DNA of 64,000 bases, from the NCBI GenBank assembly GCA_963779885.1, contig CAWAAN010000024.1, positions 11,776 to 75,775 of the forward strand. The letters run 5' to 3'. Below, piece by piece: positions 1,508 to 54,250 of the stretch (position 1 is its first letter; each line of letters starts with the position of its first letter). This DNA comes from an uncultured delta proteobacterium. Its GTDB lineage: Bacteria > Desulfobacterota > Desulfobacteria > Desulfobacterales > SG8-13. A program made the position numbers and the translations under genes. Under the pieces are notes generated by a model, which worked only from the letters and a program-made list of their open reading frames with translations, was not told the origin of the DNA and did not search any database.

Positions 1508-1956
1508 CTCAATTCATTGGTATTCATGATATCTCGTTCACGAGCACAGGCACGAGTACGTTCACGTGCACGGAAAAGAGGCGACTTCGTTAGGCTGAAA
1601 CACAATGGGCCATATTTGCACTCTCCAAAAAGCGATATCTTCTTTGTTAACCGTGAACGTGAACGTGAACGTACTCGTGAACGAAAAATTAAATGACCAA
1701 GGTCTACGAAATCCACTTGACTGTATTCAATGGAATTCATAAACACCTGTGTCGAAGTACCTCTGTACCCTTTAGTAATGGTCTAAAGAACTTCGTTCAC
1801 GAGCACGTGCACGTGTACGTTTACGTGCACAAAAAAGAGACGACTCCTTTGTTACCGTGAACGTGCTCGTGAACGTGAACGTACTCGTGAACGAAAATTA
1901 AATGACCGAGGTTTCCGAAAGCCACACGTCTGCATTCATTGGGATTCATTTAACTC
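1508..1956 (+). repeat. two tandem copies of a ~245-nt composite element (linker plus long hairpin with 6-nt-phased CGT/ACG arms)
   Basis: Arm arrays lie at 1535-1573, 1651-1683, 1794-1830 and 1855-1893, for example CGTGAA CGTGAA CGTGAA CGTACT CGTGAA. A conserved loop spans 1574-1650. The conserved linker AAATTAAATGACC...ATTCAnTGGnATTCAT is repeated at 1684-1764 and 1894-1956. It is homologous, as reverse complement, to 15925-16400. Confidence 0.85.
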
Positions 1957-2271
1957 AGTGCCGAAAGCACGCTCGATTTCGTTTTCCATCGCCAGCGCGT
2001 ACCAGCGGGTGGCCGCGGGGAAACGGCGCAGCTGCAGGCAGGCCAAAAACGCCAGGCGGGCCGCGGCGGGAGAATTTTTCAGGTGCCAGGATATCTCGGC
2101 TTTCTGCAACGCGCGGTGGCCGTCTTGTTGTTTCAGGTCCTGCGTGGCGTTCCTCAGGGCCAGGTCCGCGCTCCGGCGGATGTGAAACAGCGCGGTCAGA
2201 TCGGCGCCGCAGCGGTTGCAGTGCGTTTCCGCGGCATTGACCCGGTTGCAGGCCGGACAGGTAATTTCCAC
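1936..2271 (-). CDS. small zinc-ribbon protein (CPAC...CNRC), last gene of the Hsp70 operon
   Basis: GTG start at 2271 lies 10 nt downstream of GGAGG. The N-terminus reads M-EITCPACNRVNAAETHCNRCGADL. The longer listed ORF (to 2490) overlaps the Hsp70 gene out of frame. Confidence 0.55.
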   Translation of the reverse strand: MEITCPACNRVNAAETHCNRCGADLTALFHIRRSADLALRNATQDLKQQDGHRALQKAEISWHLKNSPAAARLAFLACLQLRRFPAATRWYALAMENEIERAFGTELNESQ

Positions 2272-2278
2272 GGCCGGA

Positions 2279-4018
2279 TCAATCCTCCAAATAAAACAGC
2301 ATGTCGGAAAGCGATTCATTGAGTTCCGCCAGCCGCTGAATGCGTCCGTCGGCGATGGCCTTCTGACTCTCGGCCAGCAATGCGCGCAGCTCGGAGGCAT
2401 CGGTTTCATCGATATCCTCCAGCAGCGCCGTGGATCTTTTACGAAGGTCCTTGGCCGTGGCGACGAGCAACTCCCTGTCATCAACGCCATCTGCCGCCGG
2501 CGCGGCCCCCGCGGCTCCGCCTTCGGCCTGGACCCAGTCGCCCAGGTGCTCTCTGGCCTGCTTGAGATCGAACACCGCCGCTCCCTCGCCGGCTTTCATG
2601 GTCACGGTCTTGGACAGGCCCGTACGCTTTTCGACGGCGGTGACCTCGAGCACGCCGTTCAAGTCCAAGGCCAGAGTCAAAACGATTTCGTTGCCGGCGG
2701 GAACGTTGCTCAGACCCTCGACGAGAAAATTGCCAATAAAAATATTGTCGTCGGCCAGGGGCGCCTCGCCCTGGAAGATGCGGACATCGACGGCTTTCTG
2801 CCCGTCGAACATCGTTGAAAACCGTTCGCCTTTTCTGGCCGGCAGCGTGGTGCCGCGGCGAATCATCGGCACGAACACGCCGTCCCGAAACTCGCCCTCA
2901 AAAAGGCCCACGGCGCCCGTACCGAAGGTGTAGGGGGTGATGTCCACCAGGATGCTGTGCGTCTTCTGCCCTTGAACGGCCGCGGCCTGGATGGCGGCAC
3001 CCATGGCGACGATGAGGTCGGGATGGATCTCGTGCCGGGGCTCGATATTGATCTGCTGGCGGACGATTTCGGCCACCAGCGGGGTCCGGGAGGCCCCGCC
3101 CACCAGAATTACCTTGTCCAGCGCGCCGGGCAGCATCAGGGCGTCCTTGAAGCAGCGGTGCACGGAATCCATGGTATTGCGCAGCAGGGGCCGGATCATC
3201 TCCTCGTATTCCGAGCGCTCGATTTCCACGTCCAGATGCAGGTCGCCAATCAGGTATTCTTCGCGAATCCGCGTGTACGGAACATCCGAGAGTTCGCACT
3301 TGGCTTTTTCGACGGCGGCCCACAGGCGGTTCCTGGCTTTGATATCATCCAGCGGATGGACGCCGTGCCGCTCAAAAAAAATTTTATCGACATGCGCCAT
3401 CAGCAGGTGATCGAAATCGTCGCCGCCAAGGTGCGTATCGCCATGGCTGGCCTTGACCTCCACCACCCCTTTTTGAGCCACCACCAGCGAGGCATCGAAG
3501 GTGCCGCCGCCCAGATCGTAGACCAGCACGGTGCGATCGCTGCTCTGGTCGGCATCGTAGGCCAGGGCCGCCGCGGTCGGCTCGTTGATGATGCGCCGGA
3601 CTTCCAGGCCGGCCAGCTTGCCGGCATTCTGGGTCGCCTTGCGCTGGGCGTCGTCGAAATAGGCCGGCACGGTGATGACCGCCTCCGCCACCGGTTCGCC
3701 CAGATGCGCCTCCGCGGCCGCCTTGAGCTTGGCCAGGATCAGCGCGGCAATCTCCTCGGGGCTGAAGAACCGCTCGCCCATGACGACCTTTTCAGCCTGC
3801 CCCATTTTGCGCTTGATCGACAGGATCGTCGCCTCGGGCGCGGCCGCCATCTGATTGCGGGCGGCCCGGCCCACGAGCAGCTCGCCGCGGCCGTCCAGCC
3901 CCACGCAAGAGGGCATGATCGGTTCGCCGTCAACCGGGATGATTTCCGGCCGGCCGTCCCTGATGACGGCGACTTCCGAATTGGTCGTGCCCAGATCGAT
4001 CCCTATGATAGCGCCCAT
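2279..4018 (-). CDS. atypical Hsp70 family ATPase (DnaK paralogue with short C-terminal lid, no EEVD)
   Basis: Contains IGIDLGTTNS, DLGGGTFD, ILVGGASRTP and NEPTAAALAY motifs. ATG at 4018 is preceded by AAGGAGG and overlaps the GrpE-like stop (TGATG). Confidence 0.9.
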   Translation of the reverse strand: MGAIIGIDLGTTNSEVAVIRDGRPEIIPVDGEPIMPSCVGLDGRGELLVGRAARNQMAAAPEATILSIKRKMGQAEKVVMGERFFSPEEIAALILAKLKAAAEAHLGEPVAEAVITVPAYFDDAQRKATQNAGKLAGLEVRRIINEPTAAALAYDADQSSDRTVLVYDLGGGTFDASLVVAQKGVVEVKASHGDTHLGGDDFDHLLMAHVDKIFFERHGVHPLDDIKARNRLWAAVEKAKCELSDVPYTRIREEYLIGDLHLDVEIERSEYEEMIRPLLRNTMDSVHRCFKDALMLPGALDKVILVGGASRTPLVAEIVRQQINIEPRHEIHPDLIVAMGAAIQAAAVQGQKTHSILVDITPYTFGTGAVGLFEGEFRDGVFVPMIRRGTTLPARKGERFSTMFDGQKAVDVRIFQGEAPLADDNIFIGNFLVEGLSNVPAGNEIVLTLALDLNGVLEVTAVEKRTGLSKTVTMKAGEGAAVFDLKQAREHLGDWVQAEGGAAGAAPAADGVDDRELLVATAKDLRKRSTALLEDIDETDASELRALLAESQKAIADGRIQRLAELNESLSDMLFYLED

Positions 4019-4683
4019 CAATTGCCTCCTTTGCGCGTCGCGACTTTGACCTCGGCGAACTTCAACACATCGCCCTTGTAAAAATACCCGGCGGCCAATT
4101 CCTCGATGACCGTGTTGTGCTCAAAGGCCTCGCTCGGCTCGACCGCGACGGCTTTCATGGTCGCCGGATCGAAGCGATTGCCGACCGTTTCCATGGGCAC
4201 GATGCCCTCCTTGCGCAGCAGCTGCTCGAAATGCTCCCGCAGCAGGTCGAATCCCTGCCGCACCGACGACCAGGCCGCGGCCCAGGTGCGGCGCGCGGAC
4301 AGCAGCCCGGGGGCAGGGGGGTGTCCGAGCCTGTCTTCGAGCCGGTTCAACCGCTCCAGCATTTCCGCGAAGGGCGCTAAAAATTCCCGGCGCTCGGCCA
4401 GCTCCAGCCGCCCGCGCTGCTGCCGCTCCTCGACCAGGCGCTCGCCCAGCGACTGCAGCATGGCTTCGAATCCCGTCAGGGTTTCCCCGAAGCGCACAAA
4501 CGTCTCGTGGCTGCGCCGCGTGCTCTTGTGCACATCGGCGCACAAACCGCAAAGCGCTTCGTAAAATGAATACAGATCCGGCGAGCCCTCCGGCGGCAGC
4601 TCTTCGTCCGCGGCCTCTTGCCCGTCCAGCCATTCCATCCACTCCCGGCATCGCTCGGCCGCTTCCTCTTTCCAGTCTTCCAA
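4018..4683 (-). CDS. GrpE-domain nucleotide exchange factor paralogue
   Basis: 221 aa. The C-terminal GNRFDPATMKAVAVEPS...VIEELAAGYFYKGDVLKFAEVKV matches the GrpE beta-domain signature. It is translationally coupled to the Hsp70 gene. Confidence 0.8.
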   Translation of the reverse strand: MEDWKEEAAERCREWMEWLDGQEAADEELPPEGSPDLYSFYEALCGLCADVHKSTRRSHETFVRFGETLTGFEAMLQSLGERLVEERQQRGRLELAERREFLAPFAEMLERLNRLEDRLGHPPAPGLLSARRTWAAAWSSVRQGFDLLREHFEQLLRKEGIVPMETVGNRFDPATMKAVAVEPSEAFEHNTVIEELAAGYFYKGDVLKFAEVKVATRKGGN

Positions 4684-5168: not shown

Positions 5169-7643
5169 TTAAAACAGGTTCTGTTGCCGCGGTCCGTTGG
5201 GGACCGACTTCTTTTTGTGCGGTTTTGGCTTTCTCTTTTGCTTTACCGGCGGCTCTGGGAAAAAAGGCAGAAAGTCATCATCTTGCGCCCCCATGTCATC
5301 CTCCTCGAAATCCTCATCCAGATCGAAGAAGGGGCTGCCATCGGTCCCGCCGGGATGAGTGAACTTATTAATTTCATGCAGCAGTTTTTGCACCGCCAGG
5401 ATCACCGTCGCTTCATTTTGTTCGCGGGCCAGCCGTAAAATTGTTTCCAGTTCCTGCACGTCGTCTTCGATCTTGCCGTATCCCGGTTCCGCCTGCTGGA
5501 GGGCGAGAAAGCGGTAATACCGGAAAAGCGCATCGTCGGGCGTTTGGTCCAGCCGGTGGCGAATATAGGCGGCGGCGATATTCGGGCGTTGGCACACCTC
5601 GGAGAGCAGAAAGCCCACCAGGGTGCCGGCCTGCTCTCGGGTCATTGGCGCCGGCGCATTGCCCGTCAGATACCTTTCCACCAGTCCGATCTTGTGCCGC
5701 AGCACCATGACTGCGCCCGGCAGCAGGCAGGCATACTGCAACGTGAGGATGCAGTCTATGGCCGCCTCGGCCGAAAATGTCCCCTTGAGGGTTTTTTCGA
5801 CGAATTTACGGTTGGCTTTGAGCAGTGACGATAACACGCCGTAGGCGCCGGCCATGATCCAGTAAAAGAAATGCAGTTTAAGCTCGCTGCCCTGTCGATT
5901 GGCTGTGGCCAGGTCCCAGAGCCGCCCGGCAAGGGCCTTGTCGTTTTGCAGGTGAGCCACCGCCGTCCAGCGCGCATACAGGTAGGCCGCGCCGCGGTTG
6001 AAATTGTCCGAATGCACGTCCGCCCACTCCAATGCACAGGGCAGCAGCGCCTGCGCTTTTTCCGGGTTGTTCTTGCGGACATATTGCAGCGCGGCCTCGA
6101 TGCAGGTCAAAATAAACTGTTCCCGCACCACCTTGTCCATGGGGTCCAGGGCCAGCGTGCGCTCGAGATACCCCATGGCCTTGACGAAGGCCTTGCGAGC
6201 GGAACAGCGGACGCCGGCTTTGAACAGGACTTCCTTTCGATCGGGAAACTGCAGAATCAATTTGTCCAGCAGCCGGTTGACGCCGGGAGTATCACCGATT
6301 TTTTCGAGAAACGCCACTTGGGCCACCTGCGACGGAAAGGCTTGCGGGTCGGCATCGATGCTCTTTTGATAACAATGGCCGGCCAGTTCGGTATTTCTCA
6401 GGCTCGGTTCATTGCGGCGCCGCCTGTCAAATAAAAACGAAAATGGATTGTCATCCTGCATTTCCTCGGAGAAAAGATCTCCCAAACGGCCATAAACAAG
6501 CGCGCGGGCGCGCGGGCTGTCGCCGCTGAGCGATTCGTAGAGGCCGAGGAATTTTTCCCACTGTTCCAGGACGAACTCATCGAACGCCATCTGCCCTTCG
6601 ATGAAAAGGGCCTGGGAGCGTTGGGCCCACATCCTTTCGGCGGGATTGACGGTTTTATCGGTGAAAGCCGAACGCAGGAGGTACTCGACATATTTCTGGG
6701 CCGTTTTGGACGGCATCTCGAAGCCGGCGTTGTAATACAGCTCGGTTAGGGTACGCTCCAATCCCCGGACGCATGTCGGAAACCCGTTCAGCGTGCTTTG
6801 CAGATGGGCGTGGGAATCCCTGTAGCGCTGCACCGTCCAGAGATAGTGCGCCCGCGCCAGATCCGAGGCCATTTGACCATAACCGGCTGCCATACACATG
6901 TCGGTCACCAGGTGCACGTCCTTGGCCTCGGCCGGCCGCCCGCAGTCCTTCTTGCGCAGCAGCCGCAGATACGGCGCAGCGGCGGCGCCCGGAACGGTGC
7001 CGGGAGCTGTTTTCCCGAAGGCGGCCACCGCTTTGTCGTCTTTCCGGCCGTAAAAAGCGCATAGCCCCTTGATGAGCCATTTCCATGAAACAAAGATCGA
7101 CCGGATACCGATGGGTTTTATTACGGCGAGGGCATCTTGAAAATTTGAACCGGACACACTTTTCAAGGCCGAGCGGACCCGCCCGAGATCACCGCGGAGC
7201 CCCTGTGGCAAGACGGTTTCCGCTGGCATCGGCTCGAATGCCAGAACCAGCGCATCCGCCGCCGCGCCTTCCTGACCGCGAAATCGATTTTCAGCGCTCA
7301 ACAATCTAGCGGCGGCCTCGGCGGCCTGATGGTAATTTTCACGTTTCAGGTTCAGGGCGATGTGCGCGCCCACGGCCGAATCACCGCTGAGATTCTCCAT
7401 CTGGTCGATGATCATGGCGGCTTCTTCGAGCAGGCCTTTTTCCAGCCGTTGCCGGTACAGCCCTTCGTAAGCCGTTATTAACGGAGATAAATAGCCGTCG
7501 TGATCGGTCTTTAAGAGCGCCTTGTATGCATCCACGGCCTGCCGAAACCGGCCCGCGGCCAGGTGCGCACCGGCCTTTTGCGGCAGGTCCGCGATCCGCA
7601 CCGGTTTTTTTCCGGTCCGGTTTTTCTTCCTCTTTTTTCCCAT
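5169..7643 (-). CDS. large alpha-helical, TPR-like repeat protein with lysine-rich termini
   Basis: About 824 aa counted from MGKKRKKNRTGKK (ATG at 7643). The C-terminus has an acidic patch EDFEEDDMGAQDDDFLPFF followed by KQKRKPKPHKKK. It is the first gene of the Hsp70 operon. The repeat class was not verified by profile search. Confidence 0.75.
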   Translation of the reverse strand: MGKKRKKNRTGKKPVRIADLPQKAGAHLAAGRFRQAVDAYKALLKTDHDGYLSPLITAYEGLYRQRLEKGLLEEAAMIIDQMENLSGDSAVGAHIALNLKRENYHQAAEAAARLLSAENRFRGQEGAAADALVLAFEPMPAETVLPQGLRGDLGRVRSALKSVSGSNFQDALAVIKPIGIRSIFVSWKWLIKGLCAFYGRKDDKAVAAFGKTAPGTVPGAAAAPYLRLLRKKDCGRPAEAKDVHLVTDMCMAAGYGQMASDLARAHYLWTVQRYRDSHAHLQSTLNGFPTCVRGLERTLTELYYNAGFEMPSKTAQKYVEYLLRSAFTDKTVNPAERMWAQRSQALFIEGQMAFDEFVLEQWEKFLGLYESLSGDSPRARALVYGRLGDLFSEEMQDDNPFSFLFDRRRRNEPSLRNTELAGHCYQKSIDADPQAFPSQVAQVAFLEKIGDTPGVNRLLDKLILQFPDRKEVLFKAGVRCSARKAFVKAMGYLERTLALDPMDKVVREQFILTCIEAALQYVRKNNPEKAQALLPCALEWADVHSDNFNRGAAYLYARWTAVAHLQNDKALAGRLWDLATANRQGSELKLHFFYWIMAGAYGVLSSLLKANRKFVEKTLKGTFSAEAAIDCILTLQYACLLPGAVMVLRHKIGLVERYLTGNAPAPMTREQAGTLVGFLLSEVCQRPNIAAAYIRHRLDQTPDDALFRYYRFLALQQAEPGYGKIEDDVQELETILRLAREQNEATVILAVQKLLHEINKFTHPGGTDGSPFFDLDEDFEEDDMGAQDDDFLPFFPEPPVKQKRKPKPHKKKSVPNGPRQQNLF

Positions 7644-7873
7644 TGTGGCCCCCTCATACCACATGTAGAGCTTTTATCAACCAAAAACCACAACATGATG
7701 AGAGATTTTGAGGGCAGGCGGCAATCACCCCCAGATATTATTCAGTGTTGCTCGCCAAACACGCCGCACTTGACGGCCGCACGGCATTTTTCAGCCTCAA
7801 AGAAAGACTTATCGGAATAAGCTGCGGAGTCAACTCGCCCAGCGAGAAATATGCGGACGGGCGAATCGAACAC

Positions 7874-13837: not shown

Positions 13838-14005
13838 GGGCTGAAAAAAAGAATGCGGCCACAATTTTCGGCGTTGAGTCGCCCGGCCGTCAAGGCGCAC
13901 AGACAAAGAAATATCTAGCTATTCCGAGTTTTTTGCAACGCAGGCGGACGGGATTCATCGGCATCTCAAATGTGGCGTTATTTTTGAGCAAGCCCCGGGG
14001 AGCGG

Positions 14006-14263
14006 TTACGGCCGCTTGCCCTTTAAAACAAGCCGCTTGATCCCGGCGCTGATCCAGCGCGCCGGCACCGCGCTCAGCGCGTAGCCGATGGTGGCCAGCA
14101 TCAGATAGATCATGGCCTTGCCCGGCAGCCCCATGCCGGAAGAAACGAGGCGGGGCGCCAGCCCCCCGGCGGCCGCGATGCCGATCAGGAGGCGCCAGGT
14201 ATCGGGCCAGAAGATAAGATAGAAAAAGACGTAGCCGGCTGTCAGGGGTCGTTTTTTGGGCAC
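14006..14263 (-). CDS. small membrane protein, unknown function
   Basis: 85 aa with two or three hydrophobic segments. No family was recognised. Confidence 0.5.
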   Translation of the reverse strand: MPKKRPLTAGYVFFYLIFWPDTWRLLIGIAAAGGLAPRLVSSGMGLPGKAMIYLMLATIGYALSAVPARWISAGIKRLVLKGKRP

Positions 14264-14439
14264 GCGGTCACCTGAAAATCAAACTGTAAAATTGAGTGTT
14301 GAACAGATAGCGATTTTATTGCGGTCTGTCCATGATATTCACATAGCGATCCGTTGCCTGTCTCGGCACCCCGTCAACCGCCGGTTCCCCAAAAATGCCT
14401 ATCGTCCCCTTTTCGCCGTCAATAACGTCATAAAAGCCA

Positions 14440-14640
14440 TCCCATCATATGGCCGATTTCCCGGCACTATATTCTTTTCCCTTCCCGTGAACGTGAACGT
14501 GCTCGTGCTCGTGAACGATTATTTAAAACGAAAATTTTTTATTAGCGGAATAGTCTTGAAGATGTACCATTACAGCCTGATGAGATTAAAGAATAAATCT
14601 TTCGTTCACGTTCACGAGTACGTGCACGTTTACGGGTACG
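14440..14640. repeat. degenerate or partial copy of the hexamer-phased composite element
   Basis: Arrays CCGTGAACGTGAACGTGCTCGTGCTCGTGAACG (14476-14508) and CGTTCACGTTCACGAGTACGTGCACGTTTACGGGTACG (14602-14640). The lead-in TTTTCCCTTC resembles the loop end of the 16xxx copies. Confidence 0.7.
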
Positions 14641-14652
14641 ATGTTTAACTGA

Positions 14653-15921
14653 CTACCAGCGGCTGGAGGAGGCCGGTTTCATGGATGAGGAGAGGAAAGG
14701 CGGGGAGGTTTCCAGGGGCTGCGACCATTCGGCGGGAAAGCGCCCATAAAAGCTGCCGTTGAGCTGGGTGTGTCGAATCAGGTGGGACCTGAATTTTCCG
14801 AACAGGGTTTTATCGGGGGCTTTGCGAAAGCGCCAGAACTCGTCCAGGGTCATGCCGCGGCAGGTCAGGCCATCGATGTCATACACGGCGCGTCCGAGAG
14901 TGATGGTCGGCGTTTCGTGAAACAGGGAAGAGATGCCGACCGTGCTGTTGATCGTCACGGTGCCCAGGGCATTTTTCAGGCAGGTGGGCAGGTGGGTGTC
15001 ATGGACCACACCGACTCTGCCAGCGATACCCAGCCGCTTCGACCTTCTGCGAATCAGCCGGGTGTAGTTCTTGATGCCCCGGTCGGCCGGGTGATGTTTA
15101 ATAAGCAGAAACGTTTCTGCGGGTGCATGCCACGCAAAGGAGGAAAGAACCTCATCGATGAAGGCTTCGATGGAAATAAAGTCCGAGTGCCGGCTGACCT
15201 GAAAGTCGTTGTGAGTTTGGAGCGGGACGAAGTAGTATTTTTTCCGCCAGCCGGCGGTCACCATGGCAGTGACCTTGCTCTCGGATACTTTGCACCACAG
15301 TTTCCGGCACCCGTTGCGAATGCCGTAAAAGGCCTGCTTGAAACACCCCTTTTCGCGATGGTGCCGGTAGTATGGATAGCGGAAGCGCAGCAGGCCCATG
15401 ACCACGTAGTAGGCAACGGCCTGGAACGCAGCCTTGCAGTGGTTGTAATTGGCCGCCAAAATAGTGGGCGAACCCTGGCCTTCCGCCGGTAGACGCTCGT
15501 AAAAAAACCTTTCGCGCGGCAGTTCGCTGAAGTCATTGACGCCGTTTTTTTCAAGGGAAATATGATCCGGCCGGATGTAGCCCTCCTCGAAAACCAAACA
15601 CTCGATCCCTGCGGCGCGGGCCTGCTCGAGCGCAATTCTGTGATACAGCCGGCAGTCGCCGAACAAAAAGATGCGGTCGATCTGATAATCGATCAACACC
15701 TGGCGAAAGAACGAGGCCCAGTCCGCGGTAGACCCCCGGTAGGCGATGGTGTTGTCCGGGTGGGCAAAAAATTGATCCCCGGCATTCAGGCAGATCCGGT
15801 AAGTTTTTGCCCCCTGGGCGCGAAAGAAAGTATCCAGTTTCTTGAAGAAGCTGCCGAGCGGCCCTTGCAGGAGCAAAATGTTCTGCCCCTGTATGCGTCC
15901 GATAATTTTTTTCATCACCAC
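14653..15921 (-). CDS. kpsS: capsule polysaccharide export protein KpsS (beta-Kdo transferase family)
   Basis: 422 aa. Family-typical N-terminal LLLQGPLGSFF and FLLIKHHP motifs. It is adjacent to kpsC. The start may be the ATG at 15915. Confidence 0.85.
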   Translation of the reverse strand: MVMKKIIGRIQGQNILLLQGPLGSFFKKLDTFFRAQGAKTYRICLNAGDQFFAHPDNTIAYRGSTADWASFFRQVLIDYQIDRIFLFGDCRLYHRIALEQARAAGIECLVFEEGYIRPDHISLEKNGVNDFSELPRERFFYERLPAEGQGSPTILAANYNHCKAAFQAVAYYVVMGLLRFRYPYYRHHREKGCFKQAFYGIRNGCRKLWCKVSESKVTAMVTAGWRKKYYFVPLQTHNDFQVSRHSDFISIEAFIDEVLSSFAWHAPAETFLLIKHHPADRGIKNYTRLIRRRSKRLGIAGRVGVVHDTHLPTCLKNALGTVTINSTVGISSLFHETPTITLGRAVYDIDGLTCRGMTLDEFWRFRKAPDKTLFGKFRSHLIRHTQLNGSFYGRFPAEWSQPLETSPPFLSSSMKPASSSRW

Positions 15922-15924
15922 AAC

Positions 15925-16400
15925 TGTTCAGCTTTTTATGAATCCCATTGAAATACCATCAAGTGGGTTTCGTAAACTTTAATGATTAAAAATTTCGTGC
16001 ACGGGTACGTTCACGAGCACGAGTACGGTTAAAAAAAGCAATCATCGCTTTATTGGAGAGTTCAAGTATGGTGCCGTTTAATTCAGCCTCACGGTGTCTC
16101 CCCTTTCCCGTGCATGCGAACGTACTCGTGCACGTGCTCGTGATCGAGGTTTCTTTAGAGGTATTTCGACACAGGTTTTTATGAATTCCATCCAATACAA
16201 TCGTGTTGGCTTCGTACACCTCGGTGATTTATTTTTCGTTCACGTGTACGTTCACGTTCACGAGCACGATCACGGTTAACAAAGAAGTCATCGCTTTTGT
16301 GTAGAGCGCAAATTATGGTCCACTGTAATTCAGCCTCGCGACCTCTCCCCTTTCCCGTGCTCGTGAACGTACTCGTGCACGTGCTCGTGACTGAAGTTTC
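15925..16400 (-). repeat. two tandem copies of the composite hexamer-phased element, inverted relative to 1508-1956
   Basis: Arrays at 15995-16028, 16108-16143, 16237-16275 and 16355-16390. Loops at 16029-16107 and 16276-16354 match the reverse complement of 1574-1650. Linkers at 15930-15994 and 16144-16236 match the reverse complement of 1684-1764. Confidence 0.85.
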
Positions 16401-16409
16401 TTCTGGGGT

Positions 16410-18473
16410 TTAAGCCAGCCCTCTCAAAAAGCCGGTCAGTTTGAGGCCCCAGCGCAGCGCCTTCGTCCCGGAGCGCTGCCGGCGGCCGGTTTGCGCGTGG
16501 CTGAGGTGCTCCAGGGCCGATTCCACGCTGACGAGGTGGCCGCGGCGCCAGTCGATGTAGCGGGGGTAGAGAATCAGCGCCGCGGCCACCAGTTCGTCGA
16601 GCGCCAGTTGGCGGCCGCGGCGGGCGAGGTGGTGCCGGTCTCGGGTCAGGCCCCAGCCGGCGTAAAACGGCAGGCCGTAGGTGGCGACCTTCTTATGGTG
16701 CAGCAGGGCTTCGAATCCCGCCAGGCTCGTCAGGGTGTGGACTTCTTCCATGCCCGCCAGGCAGATGGGCATCCCGCGGCCGCCCACGGTCAGGTTGCAG
16801 AACCGGCCGGCCTCTTCGGGCGCAACCGCGCCCCGGCGGTTGCCGGCCAGGACATCGGGGTGCGGCTTGTAGACGATGAAGGCCTCGGGGTTCTGCCGCC
16901 GGACTTCGGCCAGCAGCCCCAGGTTGGTGCGGATGTCGACACCACCCAAACGCACCGACGCATCGTCCTCGACCTGCCCGGGAACAAGAATCGTTTTTTG
17001 CCCCGGCGCGGCCGCCAGGCAAAGCGGTGCATCGTCGCCGACATTGTACTTGCTCAACCGGTTGCGCACGATGAGGCGGCGCAGACCCCGTGCGCGCCGG
17101 CACAGGTCTTCGGTAAAATTTGTCTCGCGCAGCAGAGTTTCCAGGTCGCTGGGCCGTGTGGGGTCGAAGTAAATCCCCTGCGTGTCGACCACCAGCGACA
17201 CGGGCCGCACGATGTCTGAGCCCAGGCCGACCGACCGCAGAAAACCGTCCTCCACATGGTGGACCGGCAGGCCGTGCCGGCGCGCTTTTTCTTCGATCGG
17301 CGCCGAACCGCCCGCCCCCCAGACCAGCACCTTGTCGGCCGCCGCCAGGCTTTGCGGCCGGTCGGAGAAAATCACCCGGTTGCCCGGCGCGTGCAGGGCG
17401 CGCCGGATGTAGGGCCGCTTCCACCAGTGAAACCCCGTGCAGACCAGCCGGCCCGCGTCCATGCGGTGAGCGGCGCACTGCCGGGCGAGATGCTCGATGA
17501 CCACCTCGATCGACCCCGGCCTGCCGGTGGTCGGATCGATATAGCGCGAATAGAGGATATAAGCCGCGGCGAATACTTCCGCCAGCGTCCGGGAGCGCGT
17601 GCGGCGCGGGCAGGTTTGCCGGTCACGGGTCAGTCCCCAGCCCGCGTAAAAAGGCAGGCCGAAGCACTCGACCGGCTTGTTCAGCAAAAGCGCCTCGAAG
17701 CCCATCTGGCTGGTGACGACGTAAACGCGGTCGGCTTTCTCGATAACCGAAAGCGGATTGAGGTCTTCTTCGAGCAGGTGGATCCGGGACCCGCCATGCG
17801 ACCGGGCCGACAAATAGCCCTTCTTTTTACCGGCCACCACTTCGGGATGACGCTTTATGACAATGTCGGCCTGCGGATTTTCCTTGAGAGCCGCAGCCAG
17901 CATACCCTCGAAGGTCTCCGCACCGGCCATGCCGCCGGAGACCGAGCTGTCACCGCAAGTCTGGTCGACCACCAGCACCTTCTGCCGGCGGTGACCGGGC
18001 AATGGGCCTTGAAGCAGGGGAGCGTGATTGTATTTGGAAAGCTTCCCGGCGACGATCCGCCGCAGGGCGCGTTGGGCGCGATCGATGAGGGCCGGCGTCT
18101 CCCACCCGGTGCCCTGCAGCAGGTTCTCCAGCCGTGAGGGCGTCGCCGCGTCGTAGTATATGCCCACGTCATCCACGACCACCGACAGGGGCGGGTCGCC
18201 CCCGGCGCCCGGTAAAACCGATCGGAGAAACCCGTCCTCGAGGCTTATATAGGGCAAGCCCTTTTGGTGGGCCAGCCTCCGCGCCGGCGCAGCCGTCCGC
18301 TTGCGCCCCCAACCGATCACGGCATCGAATCTCCCGCCTCTCAGCCGCCCGTACCGTGCCACCTTCTCACATTCGGGCAGAAAGGCCGCCAGGTGCGGAA
18401 TTCGCAAAATGCCACGGGATAGCGTGACGGCAAGGTTGAAAGTGGGCAGCGCAAAGCTCATCAAAGCAGCCAT
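16410..18473 (-). CDS. kpsC: capsule polysaccharide export protein KpsC (tandem beta-Kdo transferase domains)
   Basis: 687 aa. Internal duplication: two ...EDGFLRSV... and ...PFYAGWGLTRDR... segments, as in KpsC/LpsZ. Confidence 0.85.
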   Translation of the reverse strand: MAALMSFALPTFNLAVTLSRGILRIPHLAAFLPECEKVARYGRLRGGRFDAVIGWGRKRTAAPARRLAHQKGLPYISLEDGFLRSVLPGAGGDPPLSVVVDDVGIYYDAATPSRLENLLQGTGWETPALIDRAQRALRRIVAGKLSKYNHAPLLQGPLPGHRRQKVLVVDQTCGDSSVSGGMAGAETFEGMLAAALKENPQADIVIKRHPEVVAGKKKGYLSARSHGGSRIHLLEEDLNPLSVIEKADRVYVVTSQMGFEALLLNKPVECFGLPFYAGWGLTRDRQTCPRRTRSRTLAEVFAAAYILYSRYIDPTTGRPGSIEVVIEHLARQCAAHRMDAGRLVCTGFHWWKRPYIRRALHAPGNRVIFSDRPQSLAAADKVLVWGAGGSAPIEEKARRHGLPVHHVEDGFLRSVGLGSDIVRPVSLVVDTQGIYFDPTRPSDLETLLRETNFTEDLCRRARGLRRLIVRNRLSKYNVGDDAPLCLAAAPGQKTILVPGQVEDDASVRLGGVDIRTNLGLLAEVRRQNPEAFIVYKPHPDVLAGNRRGAVAPEEAGRFCNLTVGGRGMPICLAGMEEVHTLTSLAGFEALLHHKKVATYGLPFYAGWGLTRDRHHLARRGRQLALDELVAAALILYPRYIDWRRGHLVSVESALEHLSHAQTGRRQRSGTKALRWGLKLTGFLRGLA

Positions 18474-24912: not shown

Positions 24913-25123
24913 CGGTAACGAACCCCGGCAACCCGGCTGTCTCGATTCGAGACCCGTGGCTTTCCGTCTCCCGATCACTCGGGATTTGGCACTTTCAGTG
25001 GCTGATTTCTTTTATTATTATCGGTAATTATAGCAGAGAGCCGCTCATCCGTCAATTAGGGGGCGTTGAAAAAAATGGTTATCCCGGCGGCGCGGTGACA
25101 CGCCAGAAAGGCGACCCCGATGA

Positions 25124-40728: not shown

Positions 40729-40737
40729 ACCAAACGG

Positions 40738-40803
40738 GTGCAAACCGGCTCAACGGGCTCAACCGGCTCAACGACCAACGGACACAACGGACACAACGGA
40801 GAA
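40738..40803 (+). repeat. 9-nt-periodic tandem array filling the gltB-gltD spacer
   Basis: GGCTCAACG GGCTCAACC GGCTCAACG ACCAACGG ACACAACGG ACACAACGG AGAACAC, followed by the ATG. The gltD ribosome-binding site GGAG is part of the last unit. Confidence 0.7.
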
Positions 40804-40806
40804 CAC

Positions 40807-42270
<1,464 letters not shown>

Positions 42271-42820: not shown

Positions 42821-44134
42821 ATGAGAAAAAAAACGACCCCGGCCAGGGCCGGGAGTGCTTCGCCGTCTGCGGCAAACAGGCCCGTCGACGAACTCGAGCG
42901 GGCCGTCGAGGCCCTTCACGTCAGTGAGGAGAAGTACCGCACGGTCATCGAAAACATCGAAGACGGGTACTACGAAGTCGACTTGTCCGGCAATTTCACT
43001 TTTTTCAACCACGCCATGGCCCGTATCACCGGTTTTGCCAGCAACGAACTGCTGGGGATGAACAACCGGGACATGATGGACAAGTTCAACACCACCCAGG
43101 TGTTTCAGGTTTTCAACCAGGTCTACCAAACCGGTCTGGCCACCAGGGCCTTTGATTGGCAGCTGATCCGCAAGGACGGCTCCCGGCGTGTCCTGGAAGT
43201 GTCGATCAGCTTGAAGAAGTCGATCTCCGGCGAACCGGTCGGTTTCATGGGCATCGCGCGCGATGTCACGCAGCGCAAGTTGATGGAGCAGGCCCTGCGG
43301 GACAGCGAAGAAAAATACCGCATGATCATCGAGAACATCGAAGACGGGTACTATGAAGTCGACTTGTCCGGCAATTTCACTTTTTTCAACGAGGCCCTCG
43401 CCCGCATCACCGGCTACAGACGCACGGAACTGCTGGGCAAGAACAACCGCGCCATCATGGACTCATTCAACGCCAAGCGTGTCATGGCCCTTTTCAGCGG
43501 CGTTTACAACACCGGCCTGGCGACCAAGGCCTTCGATTGGGAACTGATCCGCAAAGACGGCGCCAAGCGCTACGTCGAGGTGTCGGTCTCACTGAAACGC
43601 GATCTGAAGGGTCATCCGGTGGGTTTCATGGGCATCGCACGGGACATCACTGAGCGCCGGGAAACCGAAGAACTGCTGCGCCGCAGCGAAGAGAAATTGC
43701 GCGGCAAGACCCGCAACCTCGAGGAAGTCAACACGGCGCTGACGGTTCTGTTAAAAAAACGCGAGGACGACAAGCGCGACCTCGAGCAGACCGTGCTGAC
43801 CAATCTGAACGACATGGTCAAGCCCTACCTGGAGAGGGTCAAGGCCCGCGCCAGTGACACCCGGCAAAAAAACAACCTGGCGGTCCTGGAAGAAAACCTC
43901 AACGCGATTACCTCGCCCTTTTCCTATCGCCTCTCTTCCCGTTATCTGAACCTGACGTCATCTGAAATCGAAATCGCCAACCTCGTCAAGCAGGGAAAAA
44001 GCACCAAGGACATTGCCGACCTGCTGAGCGTCTCCGGCAAGACGATCGAGGTCCATCGCCTCAACATCCGCAAGAAACTGGGGTTGAGCAATAAAAAGGC
44101 CGGTTTGAGAACCCACCTGATGTCGGTTCGCTGA
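42821..44134 (+). CDS. PAS-PAS-LuxR(GerE) transcriptional regulator
   Basis: Two 127-codon PAS units, a coiled-coil linker and a C-terminal LTSSEIEIANLVKQGKSTKDIADLLSVSGKTIEVHRLNIRKKLG helix-turn-helix. Confidence 0.85.
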   Translation: MRKKTTPARAGSASPSAANRPVDELERAVEALHVSEEKYRTVIENIEDGYYEVDLSGNFTFFNHAMARITGFASNELLGMNNRDMMDKFNTTQVFQVFNQVYQTGLATRAFDWQLIRKDGSRRVLEVSISLKKSISGEPVGFMGIARDVTQRKLMEQALRDSEEKYRMIIENIEDGYYEVDLSGNFTFFNEALARITGYRRTELLGKNNRAIMDSFNAKRVMALFSGVYNTGLATKAFDWELIRKDGAKRYVEVSVSLKRDLKGHPVGFMGIARDITERRETEELLRRSEEKLRGKTRNLEEVNTALTVLLKKREDDKRDLEQTVLTNLNDMVKPYLERVKARASDTRQKNNLAVLEENLNAITSPFSYRLSSRYLNLTSSEIEIANLVKQGKSTKDIADLLSVSGKTIEVHRLNIRKKLGLSNKKAGLRTHLMSVR

Positions 44135-46653: not shown

Positions 46654-46810
46654 CGACCGGCGACCAGCCGAAACATTAAATCGCTTTCATCCGCCAACCC
46701 TGAACCTATAACCCTAACCTTATCTGTGCCGAGCACCCGTCCGGAATCTTTTTAAGGTCACCGATCAGCTCTCATGCTGTTTATGCCACTTTGGGGATGC
46801 CCCACGCCCC

Positions 46811-50169: not shown

Positions 50170-50337
50170 GTGAATCAACTCTCCCCGCCCGATGGCGGTT
50201 CTATTGTGGTTTTGTGATCAGGGTAAAATAAACCCGGACGCTATACAAGCATAAAGCGCGGGATAATCGCTCATGATAAGAATCCCCGGCCCCGATTCAA
50301 CCTTGCCGGTAAAAGATCGTCGGTGGTATACTATGAC

Positions 50338-50420
50338 GGTTTGGCCGGTTTTGCCGGTTGAGCCCGTTTAGCCCGTTTGCCGGCTGAGTCCGTTGGGCCG
50401 GTTGAATGGGTAGGTTGGGG
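50338..50420 (-). repeat. 9-nt-periodic tandem array, reverse-complement family of the 40738-40803 array
   Basis: GGTTTGGCC GGTTTTGCC GGTTGAGCC CGTTTAGCC CGTTTGCC GGCTGAGTC CGTTGGGCC GGTTGAATG. GGTTGAGCC is the reverse complement of GGCTCAACC. Confidence 0.7.
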
Positions 50421-50497: not shown

Positions 50498-50677
50498 GAA
50501 GCTGTGCCCTCGGCGTAGCTTCACACGAGGGTTGGCAGATGAAAGCGATTCGAGGTTTCGGGTGGCGGCCTTTCAAACAATTTATGCATGACAAGGCCCT
50601 AGACTGTTTGGCCGGTTTCGTCCCGCCGGCCATCGTCTCCGAAGGGGGGCGTTGATCAACCAGCAGGAGAGAACCTC

Positions 50678-53197: not shown

Positions 53198-54250
53198 TCA
53201 GATGAATTTGTCTATCTTGGCGTTCTTGCGCAAACCATCCAGATATTCTTCGACCTTTTCACGCGTTTTCTGCTGCTTCAGGTGCTGTTCGATGTCGTCT
53301 TTCACATCGCTGAAGGCCAGGGTCGTCGCGGGCTTTTTTTCGGTGACTTTGATGATGTGATAGCCAAAGCGCGTCTCCACCACATCGCTGACCGTGCCGG
53401 GCTCCAGCGAAAACGCGGCGTCTTCGAAGGCCTTGTCCATCTGGCCGCGTTGAAAGAAGCCCAGGTCCCCGCCCTTGCCCTTGCTCGGCCCCTCGGAGAA
53501 TTCCTGGGCCACGGCTGCAAAGTCCTCGCCTTTTTTCAGCTTTTCCTGAATGGCGGCGATCTTCTTTTTGGCTTCGGCCTTCTTTTCGTCCGTGGCATCC
53601 GGGGCGACCTGGATCAGGATATGACTGGCCTTGACCTGCTCGGGCTGCTTGAACTGGTCGGGATTCTCGTCATAAAATTTTTTTGCTTCCGCTTCGCTCA
53701 CCTGGATGTCCTTCACGACCTTTGATTTCAGCAGGTCGTCTATCGCCAGGCCCTTGGCGAGCTGTGACCGGATCTCGGCCTCGGAGACTCCCATCTTCGC
53801 GATGGCATCCTTGAATTCCTGCTCGGTCTTGAACCGCTTCTTGATTTCCTCGTATTTATCGTCGAGGGTCTTGGAGTCGATCTGGATCTTTTGCTTTTTG
53901 CTTTCCTGGTAGAGCAGTTCCTGATCGATCAGGCTGTTCAAAATTTCGTTCCTCAGAACCGGCACCTGAACCTCGGGCACCTGTTGGCCCTGGCGCACCA
54001 TGCGATCGGTAAACATCTTGACTTCGCGCTCGAGCGTTTCCCCGGCAATCACGGTGCCATTGACGGTCGCCGCCGTGGCCGGCACCGCCTTTTCGGGTGC
54101 GGCTTTATCGGTCGCAGTTTTTTCGGTCGCAGCTTTTTCGGGCACGGCCTTTTCGGGCGTGGCTTTCTGCGCTCCGGCCGGAAGGGCGGCAACGAGCAGG
54201 ATTGCCGCGAGCAGGATCGCCGCGGCAAAAAAACGGTTTCTGGACAGCAT
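53198..54250 (-). CDS. parvulin-type peptidyl-prolyl isomerase (PpiC/SurA-like), secreted
   Basis: Signal peptide, and the parvulin core ASHILIQV...GGDLGFF...FGYHIIKV. Confidence 0.85.
   Translation of the reverse strand: MLSRNRFFAAAILLAAILLVAALPAGAQKATPEKAVPEKAATEKTATDKAAPEKAVPATAATVNGTVIAGETLEREVKMFTDRMVRQGQQVPEVQVPVLRNEILNSLIDQELLYQESKKQKIQIDSKTLDDKYEEIKKRFKTEQEFKDAIAKMGVSEAEIRSQLAKGLAIDDLLKSKVVKDIQVSEAEAKKFYDENPDQFKQPEQVKASHILIQVAPDATDEKKAEAKKKIAAIQEKLKKGEDFAAVAQEFSEGPSKGKGGDLGFFQRGQMDKAFEDAAFSLEPGTVSDVVETRFGYHIIKVTEKKPATTLAFSDVKDDIEQHLKQQKTREKVEEYLDGLRKNAKIDKFI

Follow-up and report, generated by a model that had tools for sequence, protein, structure and literature searches.

The hexamer arrays and their surroundings

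The window (the whole 64-kb stretch of DNA that was analyzed) carries a family of short repeats at three loci, all of them within its first 16.4 kb. The first locus is flanked by convergent genes, a methyltransferase gene (627–1460, + strand) and a zinc-ribbon ORF (- strand, stop at 1936) that closes an Hsp70/GrpE cluster. The third lies between a KpsC-like gene (16410–18473, - strand) and a KpsS-like gene (about 14653–15915, - strand), and the second lies directly past the stop codon of the latter. The exact sequence of the window's KpsS-like ORF has no protein record, probably owing to a different choice of start codon. The window also holds a c-di-GMP-I-GGC riboswitch.

What recurs at these loci is an array of hexamers in 6-nt phase. 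Such arrays had been proposed in an earlier reading of the sequence, made without database searches (the sequence-only reading), and they are real: there are ten of them. A pattern of five CGT-N3 units followed by CG has 11 matches in the window, confined to 1535–1893, 14486–14640, and 15996–16389, versus 0 in 100 dinucleotide-preserving shuffles of the window. TRF and repeat finding arrive at the same ten, at periods 6, 12, and 18. Depending on the strand, the arrays read (WKCACG)n or the complement CGTGMW, with ACG nearly invariant, and alignment of arm1 gives as the arm consensus the 12-mer TKCACGAGYACG, repeated three times. In tripled form, the hexamer-array sequence can be written (TTCACGAGCACG)3.

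The arrays are parts of a larger unit of ~245 nt, in the order arm1, loop, arm2, linker (Table 1), and here, too, the anatomy is as first described, down to the contrast between a 77-nt loop in unit A and a 24-nt loop in unit B. Array orientation alternates, and "loop" and "linker" take turns as the separator. The elements have 40–50% G+C, versus ~60% for the window. Several details of the original description need revision. The linker is indeed conserved, but its length is not ~90 nt at locus 1: it is 109 nt after unit A, and what follows unit B is 72 nt that resemble linker A at 76% identity. The second arm is a phased complement of the first, as had been stated, but an imperfect one, with arms only 79–85% complementary. 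The ten arrays had been counted as five hairpin units; the number of arrays stands, but locus 2 is not a standard unit. Read on its - strand, it consists of a C-type array (14640–14603), an 85-nt spacer, an H-type array (14517–14486), and a GGGAAGGGAAAAG tail, that is, arm2-type, spacer, arm1-type. Locus 3 (15916–16391) holds two full units in the orientation opposite to locus 1. Finally, locus 1 does sit between convergent genes, but the element covers about 30 nt of the 3′ end of the zinc-ribbon ORF rather than about 20 nt. The stop codon of this ORF lies inside the TCATTG core of the linker, and likewise does so in an orthologous copy (L249, below).

Table 1. Features of the repeat loci in the window (H-type and C-type denote the two array orientations)
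Feature	Position	Strand	Basis or remark
Locus 1, tandem units A and B	1508..1966	+	nhmmer E=6.5e-66 and 1.1e-44
ATTCAWTGGNATTCAT motif copy ahead of unit A	1512..1527	+	Motif search
Arm A1, H-type (NNYACG)n	1534..1573	+	Last letters CACGG; TCGTTCACGAGCACAGGCACGAGTACGTTCACGTGCACGG
Loop A, 77 nt	1574..1650	+	Starts GGAAAAGAGGCGAC, ends AAAAGCGAT..TTGTTAA
Arm A2, C-type (CGTRMN)n	1651..1683	+	CCGTGAACGTGAACGTGAACGTACTCGTGAACG
Linker A, 109 nt	1684..1792	+	Contains small hairpin CCAC-TTGA..TCAA-TGG
Arm B1, H-type	1793..1830	+	
Loop B, 24 nt	1831..1854	+	Deletion derivative of loop A (alignment)
Arm B2, C-type	1855..1893	+	
Linker B	1894..1966	+	TCATTG core holds zinc-ribbon stop codon (1936–1938)
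Locus 2	14473..14660	-	13 nt past KpsS-like stop codon
Locus 3, unit D arm1, H-type	16354..16391	-	22 nt past KpsC-like stop codon (16410–16412)
Locus 3, unit D loop	16276..16353	-	
Locus 3, unit D arm2, C-type	16237..16275	-	
Locus 3, unit D linker	16147..16236	-	
Locus 3, unit C arm1	16107..16146	-	One hexamer degenerate
Locus 3, unit C loop	16029..16106	-	
Locus 3, unit C arm2	15996..16028	-	
Locus 3, unit C linker	15916..15995	-	5′ leader directly before KpsS-like start codon

The ATTCAWTGGNATTCAT motif found ahead of unit A recurs in each linker of locus 1 (1725–1740 and 1934–1949), with 6 matches against 0.32 expected. A profile search with nine units found no more copies in the window's remaining 48 kb. 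The element is always co-oriented with the gene upstream of it and starts 8–77 nt past the stop codon of that gene. The distance is 8–22 nt for the KpsC-like and KpsS-like genes and for a PilY1-like gene in a relative (L003, below), and about 75 nt for the methyltransferase gene.

Copies in related genomes and the gain and loss of units

The methyltransferase of the window is 100% identical to a protein of the Desulfobacterales MAG GCA_049692455.1, and the host is taken to be this MAG or an almost identical strain. A 2,997-nt contig of that assembly (L253) matches the window through unit A, with two substitutions in the part compared by eye, and ends inside the linker, which suggests that the element breaks short-read assemblies. 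Farther away, among the at least 120 genome-collection matches listed, the sole true homolog is a copy in an uncultured deltaproteobacterial MAG (L003; 76% identity over 271 nt), 12 nt past the stop of a PilY1-like gene and with a convergent pentapeptide-repeat gene opposite. The other matches listed are mostly unrelated arrays and coding dipeptide repeats. A family-specific 21-mer found one contig only in metagenomes (L121), which is the ortholog of the L003 site. We found no match to the element in plasmid and phage records by blastn, and no matches to family-specific 18–20-mers in viral collections. A viral match to the generic phased pattern among the matches listed (L229) is an RD/RE coding repeat and not a member of the family. 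A literature search returned no paper carrying the hexamer sequences and nothing specific on hexanucleotide or foldback repeats.

Orthologous sites are more informative. Homologs of the KpsS-like protein, at 81–83% identity, lie on the contigs L242/L243, L244–L247, and L248, and in all of these the element stands right after the KpsC-like stop ('taaagccaagaaaaactt'). At that site, L248 has a single unit and L244 a single one whose loop is shortened; the window has two full units, and L242/L243 have three arm1-plus-loop modules, the last with a degenerate arm1, ahead of one long arm2. In L242, three such modules are set against a single long C-type array. After KpsS, the arm2-type, spacer, arm1-type arrangement of locus 2 is found again in L242/L243 and L244, and the element is absent in L248. 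At the methyltransferase site, L249 carries about five tandem units and L250 a single unit whose arm1 is cut down to 'atgcacg'; the element is absent from this site in L251 and L252. Three sites are shared with relatives: the capsule-gene sites with L242/L243, L244, and L248 (in the last not after KpsS), and the methyltransferase site with L249/L250. Arm length, too, can be unbalanced, with 2.5, 6, 6, and 3 hexamers in L003.

Across relatives, the number of tandem units ranges from 1 to 5, and it can change while the surroundings hardly do. The flanking genes of L249 and L250 agree at 99.9% of positions, yet the two carry 5 and 1 units. L242 and L243 share 95.6% identity in the spacer, against 99.8% in the gene next to it. 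Both comparisons carry the caveat of long-read assembly error in repeats. By this evidence, the family is old at orthologous sites, dispersed to unrelated ones, and hypervariable in hexamer and unit number. At the DNA level it behaves as a minisatellite: hexamers and whole units of ~190–245 nt come and go quickly, presumably by slippage or unequal recombination.

Such behavior could be that of a selfish or neutral repeat, a foldback- or MITE-like element or a palindromic minisatellite of no benefit to the host, which would survive downstream of genes as the least harmful place and be kept recognizable by slippage and gene conversion. The difference of five copies against one between near-identical flanks and the diverged L242/L243 spacer speak for this possibility, as do loops and linkers that evolve at the neutral rate (below), orthologous sites that lack the element, spread to unrelated loci such as that past the L003 PilY1-like gene, the contig break of L253 inside the element, and the bias toward convergent and tandem spacers that REPs and MITEs share. 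MITEs and foldback elements are, moreover, like the present element small, non-coding, and dispersed, differ in presence or absence between genomes, and have internally repetitive, length-variable inverted arms around a variable central segment. Foldback elements have been described in eukaryotes. The sequence-only reading had listed a MITE among its candidates, but this did not hold up: when the occupied site after KpsS (window, L242, and L244) is compared with the empty site in L248, there is no duplicated flank. Neither a target-site duplication nor defined termini nor a cognate transposase was found, and the inverted arrays do not mark the ends of the element but lie within a unit that is itself repeated in tandem. 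It also counts against a selfish repeat that the window's remaining 48 kb hold no additional copy and that none was found in the viral, plasmid, and phage collections, that three sites are kept in species ~25% diverged at 4-fold sites, and that the element is placed so tightly, starting 8–22 nt past stop codons. We regard a purely selfish or neutral origin as somewhat doubtful, although it carries real weight.

Sequence constraint and pairing of the arms

One half of the hexamer is nearly invariant. Over 148 hexamers in one orientation the logo is [T/A][G/T][C/t]ACG, in which each of the last three letters reaches 97–100%. Between the window and its relatives, the arms are 88–90% identical, a figure to which the extra alignment freedom of repeats may contribute. 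Loops and linkers are 61–79% identical between species, and because this matches the 72–76% identity at 4-fold degenerate sites of the KpsS-like gene (window versus relatives), they look neutral. Pairing alone would not require CACG to be so nearly invariant. The only palindromes inside an arm are short ones such as CGTGCACG.

Predicted folding of the elements is strong (z-scores of -5.5 to -8.2). The stability of the stems follows from a set of hexamers common to all arrays, through which each H-type array can pair, in several registers, with each C-type array. RNAduplex bears out the anticipated pairing, in more than one register, of every arm1-type array with every arm2-type array. In the same calculation, however, true partners have no advantage over non-partner arms: among arms of other loci and species, they rank anywhere from 1st to 11th of 11. 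RNAalifold finds 25 arm pairs conserved across 8 copies but a compensatory change in only 1 of 29 pairs, with a positive covariation term (+1.88). The suggestion of a structured RNA thus finds no backing in covariation, there being essentially no compensatory changes between arms, which goes part of the way toward what the sequence-only reading had itself named as counter-evidence, and we see no evidence of selection on arm pairing. Sense and antisense strands fold about equally well on the whole, with no consistent asymmetry in energy from which to infer the transcribed strand.

Several explanations of the arm sequence can be considered. First, the arrays might encode a small protein. Two candidates were seen: a reverse-strand ORF that begins in the linker (MNSIEYNRVGF..LG.L.F) and continues through the array as a His-rich (VH/EH/EY)n tail, and a forward Arg-rich ORF across arm1, loop, and arm2. 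The reverse linker frame has one stop in 10 copies where other frames have 4–13, the consecutive codons CGN GTN GGN vary at the third position, and there are 77–98-aa ORFs over units A and C. But pN/pS is 0.79, not better than in other frames; the ATG is missing in L003, L250, L242, L244, and L248; the array is entered in three different frames, with frameshifts in the unit C, L249, and L242 copies; arm2 of unit B is offset by 1 nt from that of unit A; whichever frame is taken, the hexamer base that would be in the wobble position does not vary; and there are no Pfam matches. A coding role thus seems very improbable. All six frames were considered and rejected, and no reading frame is maintained from one unit to the next.

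Second, the arms might serve inversion. Recombination between inverted arms would flip a loop or a linker, among them the leader of the KpsS-like gene, and make capsule expression phase-variable. Inverted arms of ~36 bp do flank segments of 24–110 nt beside capsule genes, and invertible promoters are a classic feature of capsule loci. The orientation of loop, linker, and spacer is nevertheless constant in ~20 copies from five genomes, no promoter-like site was found in any of these segments, no recombinase gene is adjacent, and for site-specific inversion such segments would be very short. We would give such a switch almost no credence.

Third, the arrays might be read as double-stranded DNA. 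A protein-binding array, one of the early suggestions, remains a live functional reading alongside a terminator or processing module (below). A nucleoid-associated protein, or a cooperative binder resembling Fur, omega, or MetJ, would polymerize along the phased CACG/CGTG hexamers, and the inverted arrangement would give symmetric or looped complexes. Fur, omega, and MetJ are known to bind contiguous arrays of 6–8-bp sites. We know of no fit between the hexamer arrays and the consensus of attC sites, CIRCE, sigma-54 promoters, KOPS, or IHF sites, and set these aside. A DNA-bound protein would account for a phase of exactly 6 nt with ACG 97–100% invariant and the other positions variable, for arms that are better conserved (0.88–0.90) than neutral sites (0.72–0.76), for arrays that persist without a pairing partner (L250), and for the absence of partner-specific covariation. 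The same idea was the original proposal for paired tandem-repeat sites in Geobacter metallireducens, which their authors read as DNA sites for IHF/HU-type regulators (PMC2700814). Conservation of the arms could also come from concerted evolution or from the alignment freedom of repeats, however, and the number and length of arrays vary freely between near-identical strains. All loci lie at gene 3′ ends, with no copy yet seen in a divergent promoter region, an uncommon placement for transcription-factor sites, and synteny offers no candidate binder, the conserved neighbor being an 85-aa membrane protein. Taking these points together, we consider a dsDNA-binding array unlikely, if by no means negligible.

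Relation to known repeats and a possible role at gene ends

The sequence-only reading recognized no known repeat class in the element. This stands insofar as Rfam has no match, but the novelty was put too strongly, given the Geobacter sites reported in 2009 and a parallel to BIMEs. The closest precedent that we found in the literature is the set of paired tandem-repeat sites of Geobacter metallireducens, Gmet_I classes 1–3 (Aklujkar et al. 2009, PMC2700814), in an organism of a related group, the former Deltaproteobacteria. These are intergenic pairs of sites on opposite strands, each site being a contiguous run of 3–5 short tandem repeats, and the spacing within a pair varies; the arrays of the window, with 5–6 hexamers on opposite strands 24–110 nt apart, fit this description. 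Both are multicopy and lineage-specific, and both lie at 3′/3′ or 3′/5′ junctions, which in Geobacter include some within operons such as proBA and pdhAB; 19 of the 19 Geobacter pairs examined (Table S4) are 3′/3′ or 3′/5′ and none is 5′/5′ (PMC2700814). The likeness does not extend to sequence. We found no similarity between the element and the Geobacter sites as given there, whose repeat unit is 7–9 nt (GTTGCTYN, TCTCCGTS[Y], MTYCTGA) versus the 6-nt WKCACG here, with no shared consensus, and the paper describes for Geobacter neither a composite of loop and linker nor tandem amplification of whole units, unlike the window element.

The second parallel is to the REPs and BIMEs of enterobacteria and pseudomonads, including REPINs. 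These are likewise extragenic, stand after stop codons and between cistrons or convergent genes, form mosaics of alternating orientation with two kinds of conserved linker, vary in unit number between strains, and give stable hairpins in transcripts, as is predicted here. The differences are also clear. REPs are single palindromic units of 20–40 nt, whereas the arms of the window are tandem hexamer arrays that pair 24–110 nt away, and REPs carry a 5′ GTAG and are mobilized by RAYT transposases; on reading the sequences by eye we saw no GTAG beside any arm, and no RAYT is known for this element. REPs number tens to hundreds of copies per genome; here, the 64-kb window has three loci in its first 16.4 kb and none beyond, and the relatives were compared over loci of 8–21 kb. 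Their biology is nonetheless instructive. REP325, an E. coli BIME, acts as a partial, partly Rho-dependent terminator and as a stabilizer of upstream mRNA, and where E. coli REPs lie between convergent genes, expression of the two genes tends to be higher (2026 preprint).

Other known classes fit less well. The element is not a CRISPR, as had been said from the start: CRISPRs have identical direct repeats of 24–48 nt with unique spacers of similar length, whereas here successive repeats face opposite ways and what lies between them is itself repeated and conserved. At the gathering threshold, Rfam 15 gave no matches to the element at the three loci, and its E-value mode gave only chance matches to microRNA hairpins, far below the cut-offs. 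A terminator or processing module, another of the early proposals, is still live, though not in the shape of a canonical intrinsic terminator. Like such a terminator, the element would place a G+C-containing hairpin right after stop codons and between convergent genes, but an intrinsic terminator has a stem of 5–12 bp and a loop of 3–8 nt, compared with a stem of 30–36 bp and loops of 24–110 nt here. A terminator search found none in 1300–2200 and six sites in 13900–16600, none of them inside the elements; there is no U-tract on either strand, and arm2 precedes an A-run. A promoter search found no canonical promoter in the elements. By their defining features, then, the element lies outside REP/BIME, MITE, CRISPR, and Rfam families, but it is of a kind already known though poorly understood, that of extragenic palindromic mosaics and paired tandem-repeat sites.

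The element is a non-coding composite repeat of alternating orientation that stands right after co-oriented genes and is kept at orthologous sites. Our preferred, and still tentative, account is that it is a BIME-like composite extragenic repeat specific to a Desulfobacterales clade that forms 3′ UTR or intercistronic hairpins. The element would be transcribed together with the gene upstream, and in the mRNA an H-type array would zip with the neighboring C-type array, in any of several registers, into an imperfect stem of ~30 bp. This stem could act as a barrier at the 3′ end or between cistrons that shields the upstream message from 3′–5′ exonucleases; between the KpsC-like and KpsS-like genes it could attenuate read-through or provide a processing site, and between convergent genes it could insulate one from the other. 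The number of units would then be a fast-evolving dial of expression.

In favor of such hairpins are the position after stop codons, retention at orthologous sites, the predicted folding, the precedents of REP325 and of the Geobacter sites with their gene junctions, and a wider class of arrays at gene 3′ ends (see below). The case is weakened by the lack of covariation, by partner arms that pair no better than others, by arms that are unbalanced or nearly lost, by the missing U-tract, by the lack of a consistent strand asymmetry in folding energy, by a CACG core more invariant than pairing alone explains, by neutral loops and linkers, and by the absence of the element in L248 (after KpsS) and L251 (methyltransferase site). 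The history of REPs shows that hairpins in the message, protein binding to the DNA arrays, and selfish maintenance do not exclude one another.

The wider class emerged from the genome-collection matches, where ~25 of the at least 120 loci listed have an inverted partner array within 300 nt. Among the matches listed, such inverted pairs of hexamer arrays occur in Myxococcota, Planctomycetota, Bdellovibrionota, Chlamydiota, Methylococcales, and others. With ORFs taken as crude stop-to-stop calls, the 3′ end of a long ORF points at the hairpin within 130 nt in 20 of the 25 pairs listed, compared with 14–16% of random positions, and 8 of the 25 lie between convergent ORF ends, compared with 2% of random positions. 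H-type-first and C-type-first pairs both occur among the 25, and there is no single-strand orientation rule for the class as a whole. One could imagine a widespread, hitherto undescribed class of elements at gene 3′ ends in Desulfobacterota, Myxococcota, Bdellovibrionota, Planctomycetota, and others, in which inverted, phased CACG-type arrays would be read by a dedicated sequence-specific factor and, through fast gain and loss of repeats, act as heritable, tunable expression dials. The factor may be, for example, a termination, processing, or nucleoid protein, and the dials here may bear on the capsule operon. We hold this broad generalization to be distinctly unlikely.

The element itself is probably a REP-like accessory, and in practical terms it is one that seems to break short-read assemblies, as in contig L253. 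If the arrays act on transcripts, they would represent a REP-like layer of control at the 3′ ends of genes in an uncultured lineage of sulfate reducers, with a repeat-number variable built into a capsule operon. The architecture, inverted arrays built of short tandem repeats and placed where genes end, has lacked an explanation since it was seen in Geobacter 15 years ago. With a defined example that is conserved yet variable, comparisons at orthologous sites, and enrichment at gene 3′ ends across phyla, the Geobacter puzzle becomes testable.

Unit number and gene context at the methyltransferase site

In two relatives' assemblies whose flanking genes are 99.9% identical, the site 3' of the methyltransferase gene holds five units of the hexamer-array element on one contig (L249) and only one on the other (L250), a difference of ~650 nt. 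Upstream, L250 has in addition a DDE transposase that is missing from L249. The repeat of the element itself appears to break up assemblies, as suggested by a contig of the window's organism or a near-identical strain (L253; GCA_049692455.1, contig JBAVOW010000006.1, a short-read MAG), because its end falls inside linker A.

Beside the element lies a conserved cluster for Hsp70 and GrpE together with a small zinc-ribbon protein, and in both species the TCAWTG core of the linker contains the zinc-ribbon gene stop codon. A DnaJ-domain protein and a ~824-aa protein of unknown function were also called in the L249 cluster; the 831-aa ORF of the window is probably the counterpart of the latter.

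Other repeats and a riboswitch in the window

Inverted-repeat search and TRF detected 9-nt repeat arrays, CTCAACGGN and the complementary CGGTTKAGC, separated by 9.5 kb (pair I18), and a start codon lies at 40808, just downstream of the first. A 43-nt inverted repeat (pair I11) is distinct from them. These arrays or the 43-nt repeat may represent one more site of the kind catalogued in Geobacter metallireducens, where paired tandem repeats lie on opposite strands. Elsewhere in the window, a 381-nt tandem duplication within an ORF probably reflects a duplicated protein domain, and a riboswitch aptamer and shorter tandem repeats are listed in the table.

Array hairpins in other lineages

In MAGs from Myxococcota, Planctomycetota, Chlamydiota and others, inverted hexamer or heptamer arrays, with arms such as (CGGGCA)5...(CGTGCC)5, build long hairpins at the loci tabulated and at further ones. 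These hairpins often fill exactly the gap between convergent stop codons, and an ORF 3' end adjoins the hairpin in 20 of 25 loci among the matches listed.

A profile search found no similarity outside the arrays of the Bdellovibrionota and Pseudomonadota loci. The arrays in these MAGs and the window's element have mixed hexamers (CGGGTACGTTCACGTTTACGAGCACG...) in common, and at one locus (L012) GGAAAGGG comes after the array, as it does in the window's element family. The mixed-hexamer arrays of Bdellovibrionota and Pseudomonadota may be distant relatives of the element.

Coordinates of features in the window, in relatives' contigs (L249, L250) and at loci from the genome-collection pattern scan (other L numbers)
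Feature	Position	Strand or orientation	Details
Element after methyltransferase gene	L249 6832-7700; L250 6832-7050		
Hsp70/GrpE/zinc-ribbon cluster	window 1936-4683; L249 7677-10972	- (window)	
831-aa ORF	window 5169-7664		no Pfam match
c-di-GMP-I-GGC riboswitch aptamer	window 24923-24999	-	RF03167, 63 bits; gathering score 59
9-nt array pair	window 40733-40800 and 50337-50383	inverted	I18
381-nt tandem duplication	window 42935-43638		1.8 copies, 76% identity; ORF 42821-44134
43-nt inverted repeat	window 46659-46701 with 50528-50570	inverted	I11; 84% complementary
15- and 30-nt tandem repeats	window 54081-54166 and 54193-54224		TTTTCGGGCGCAGCT
Inverted-array long hairpins	L007 1407-1552; L011 2945-3250; L047 5201-5600; L062 3001-3148; L084 530-685; L115 5968-6150		
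Mixed-hexamer arrays	L012 68-105; L027 2803-2834; L033 113-144 and 267-286; L054 680-780; L080 5003-5034; L107 180-276
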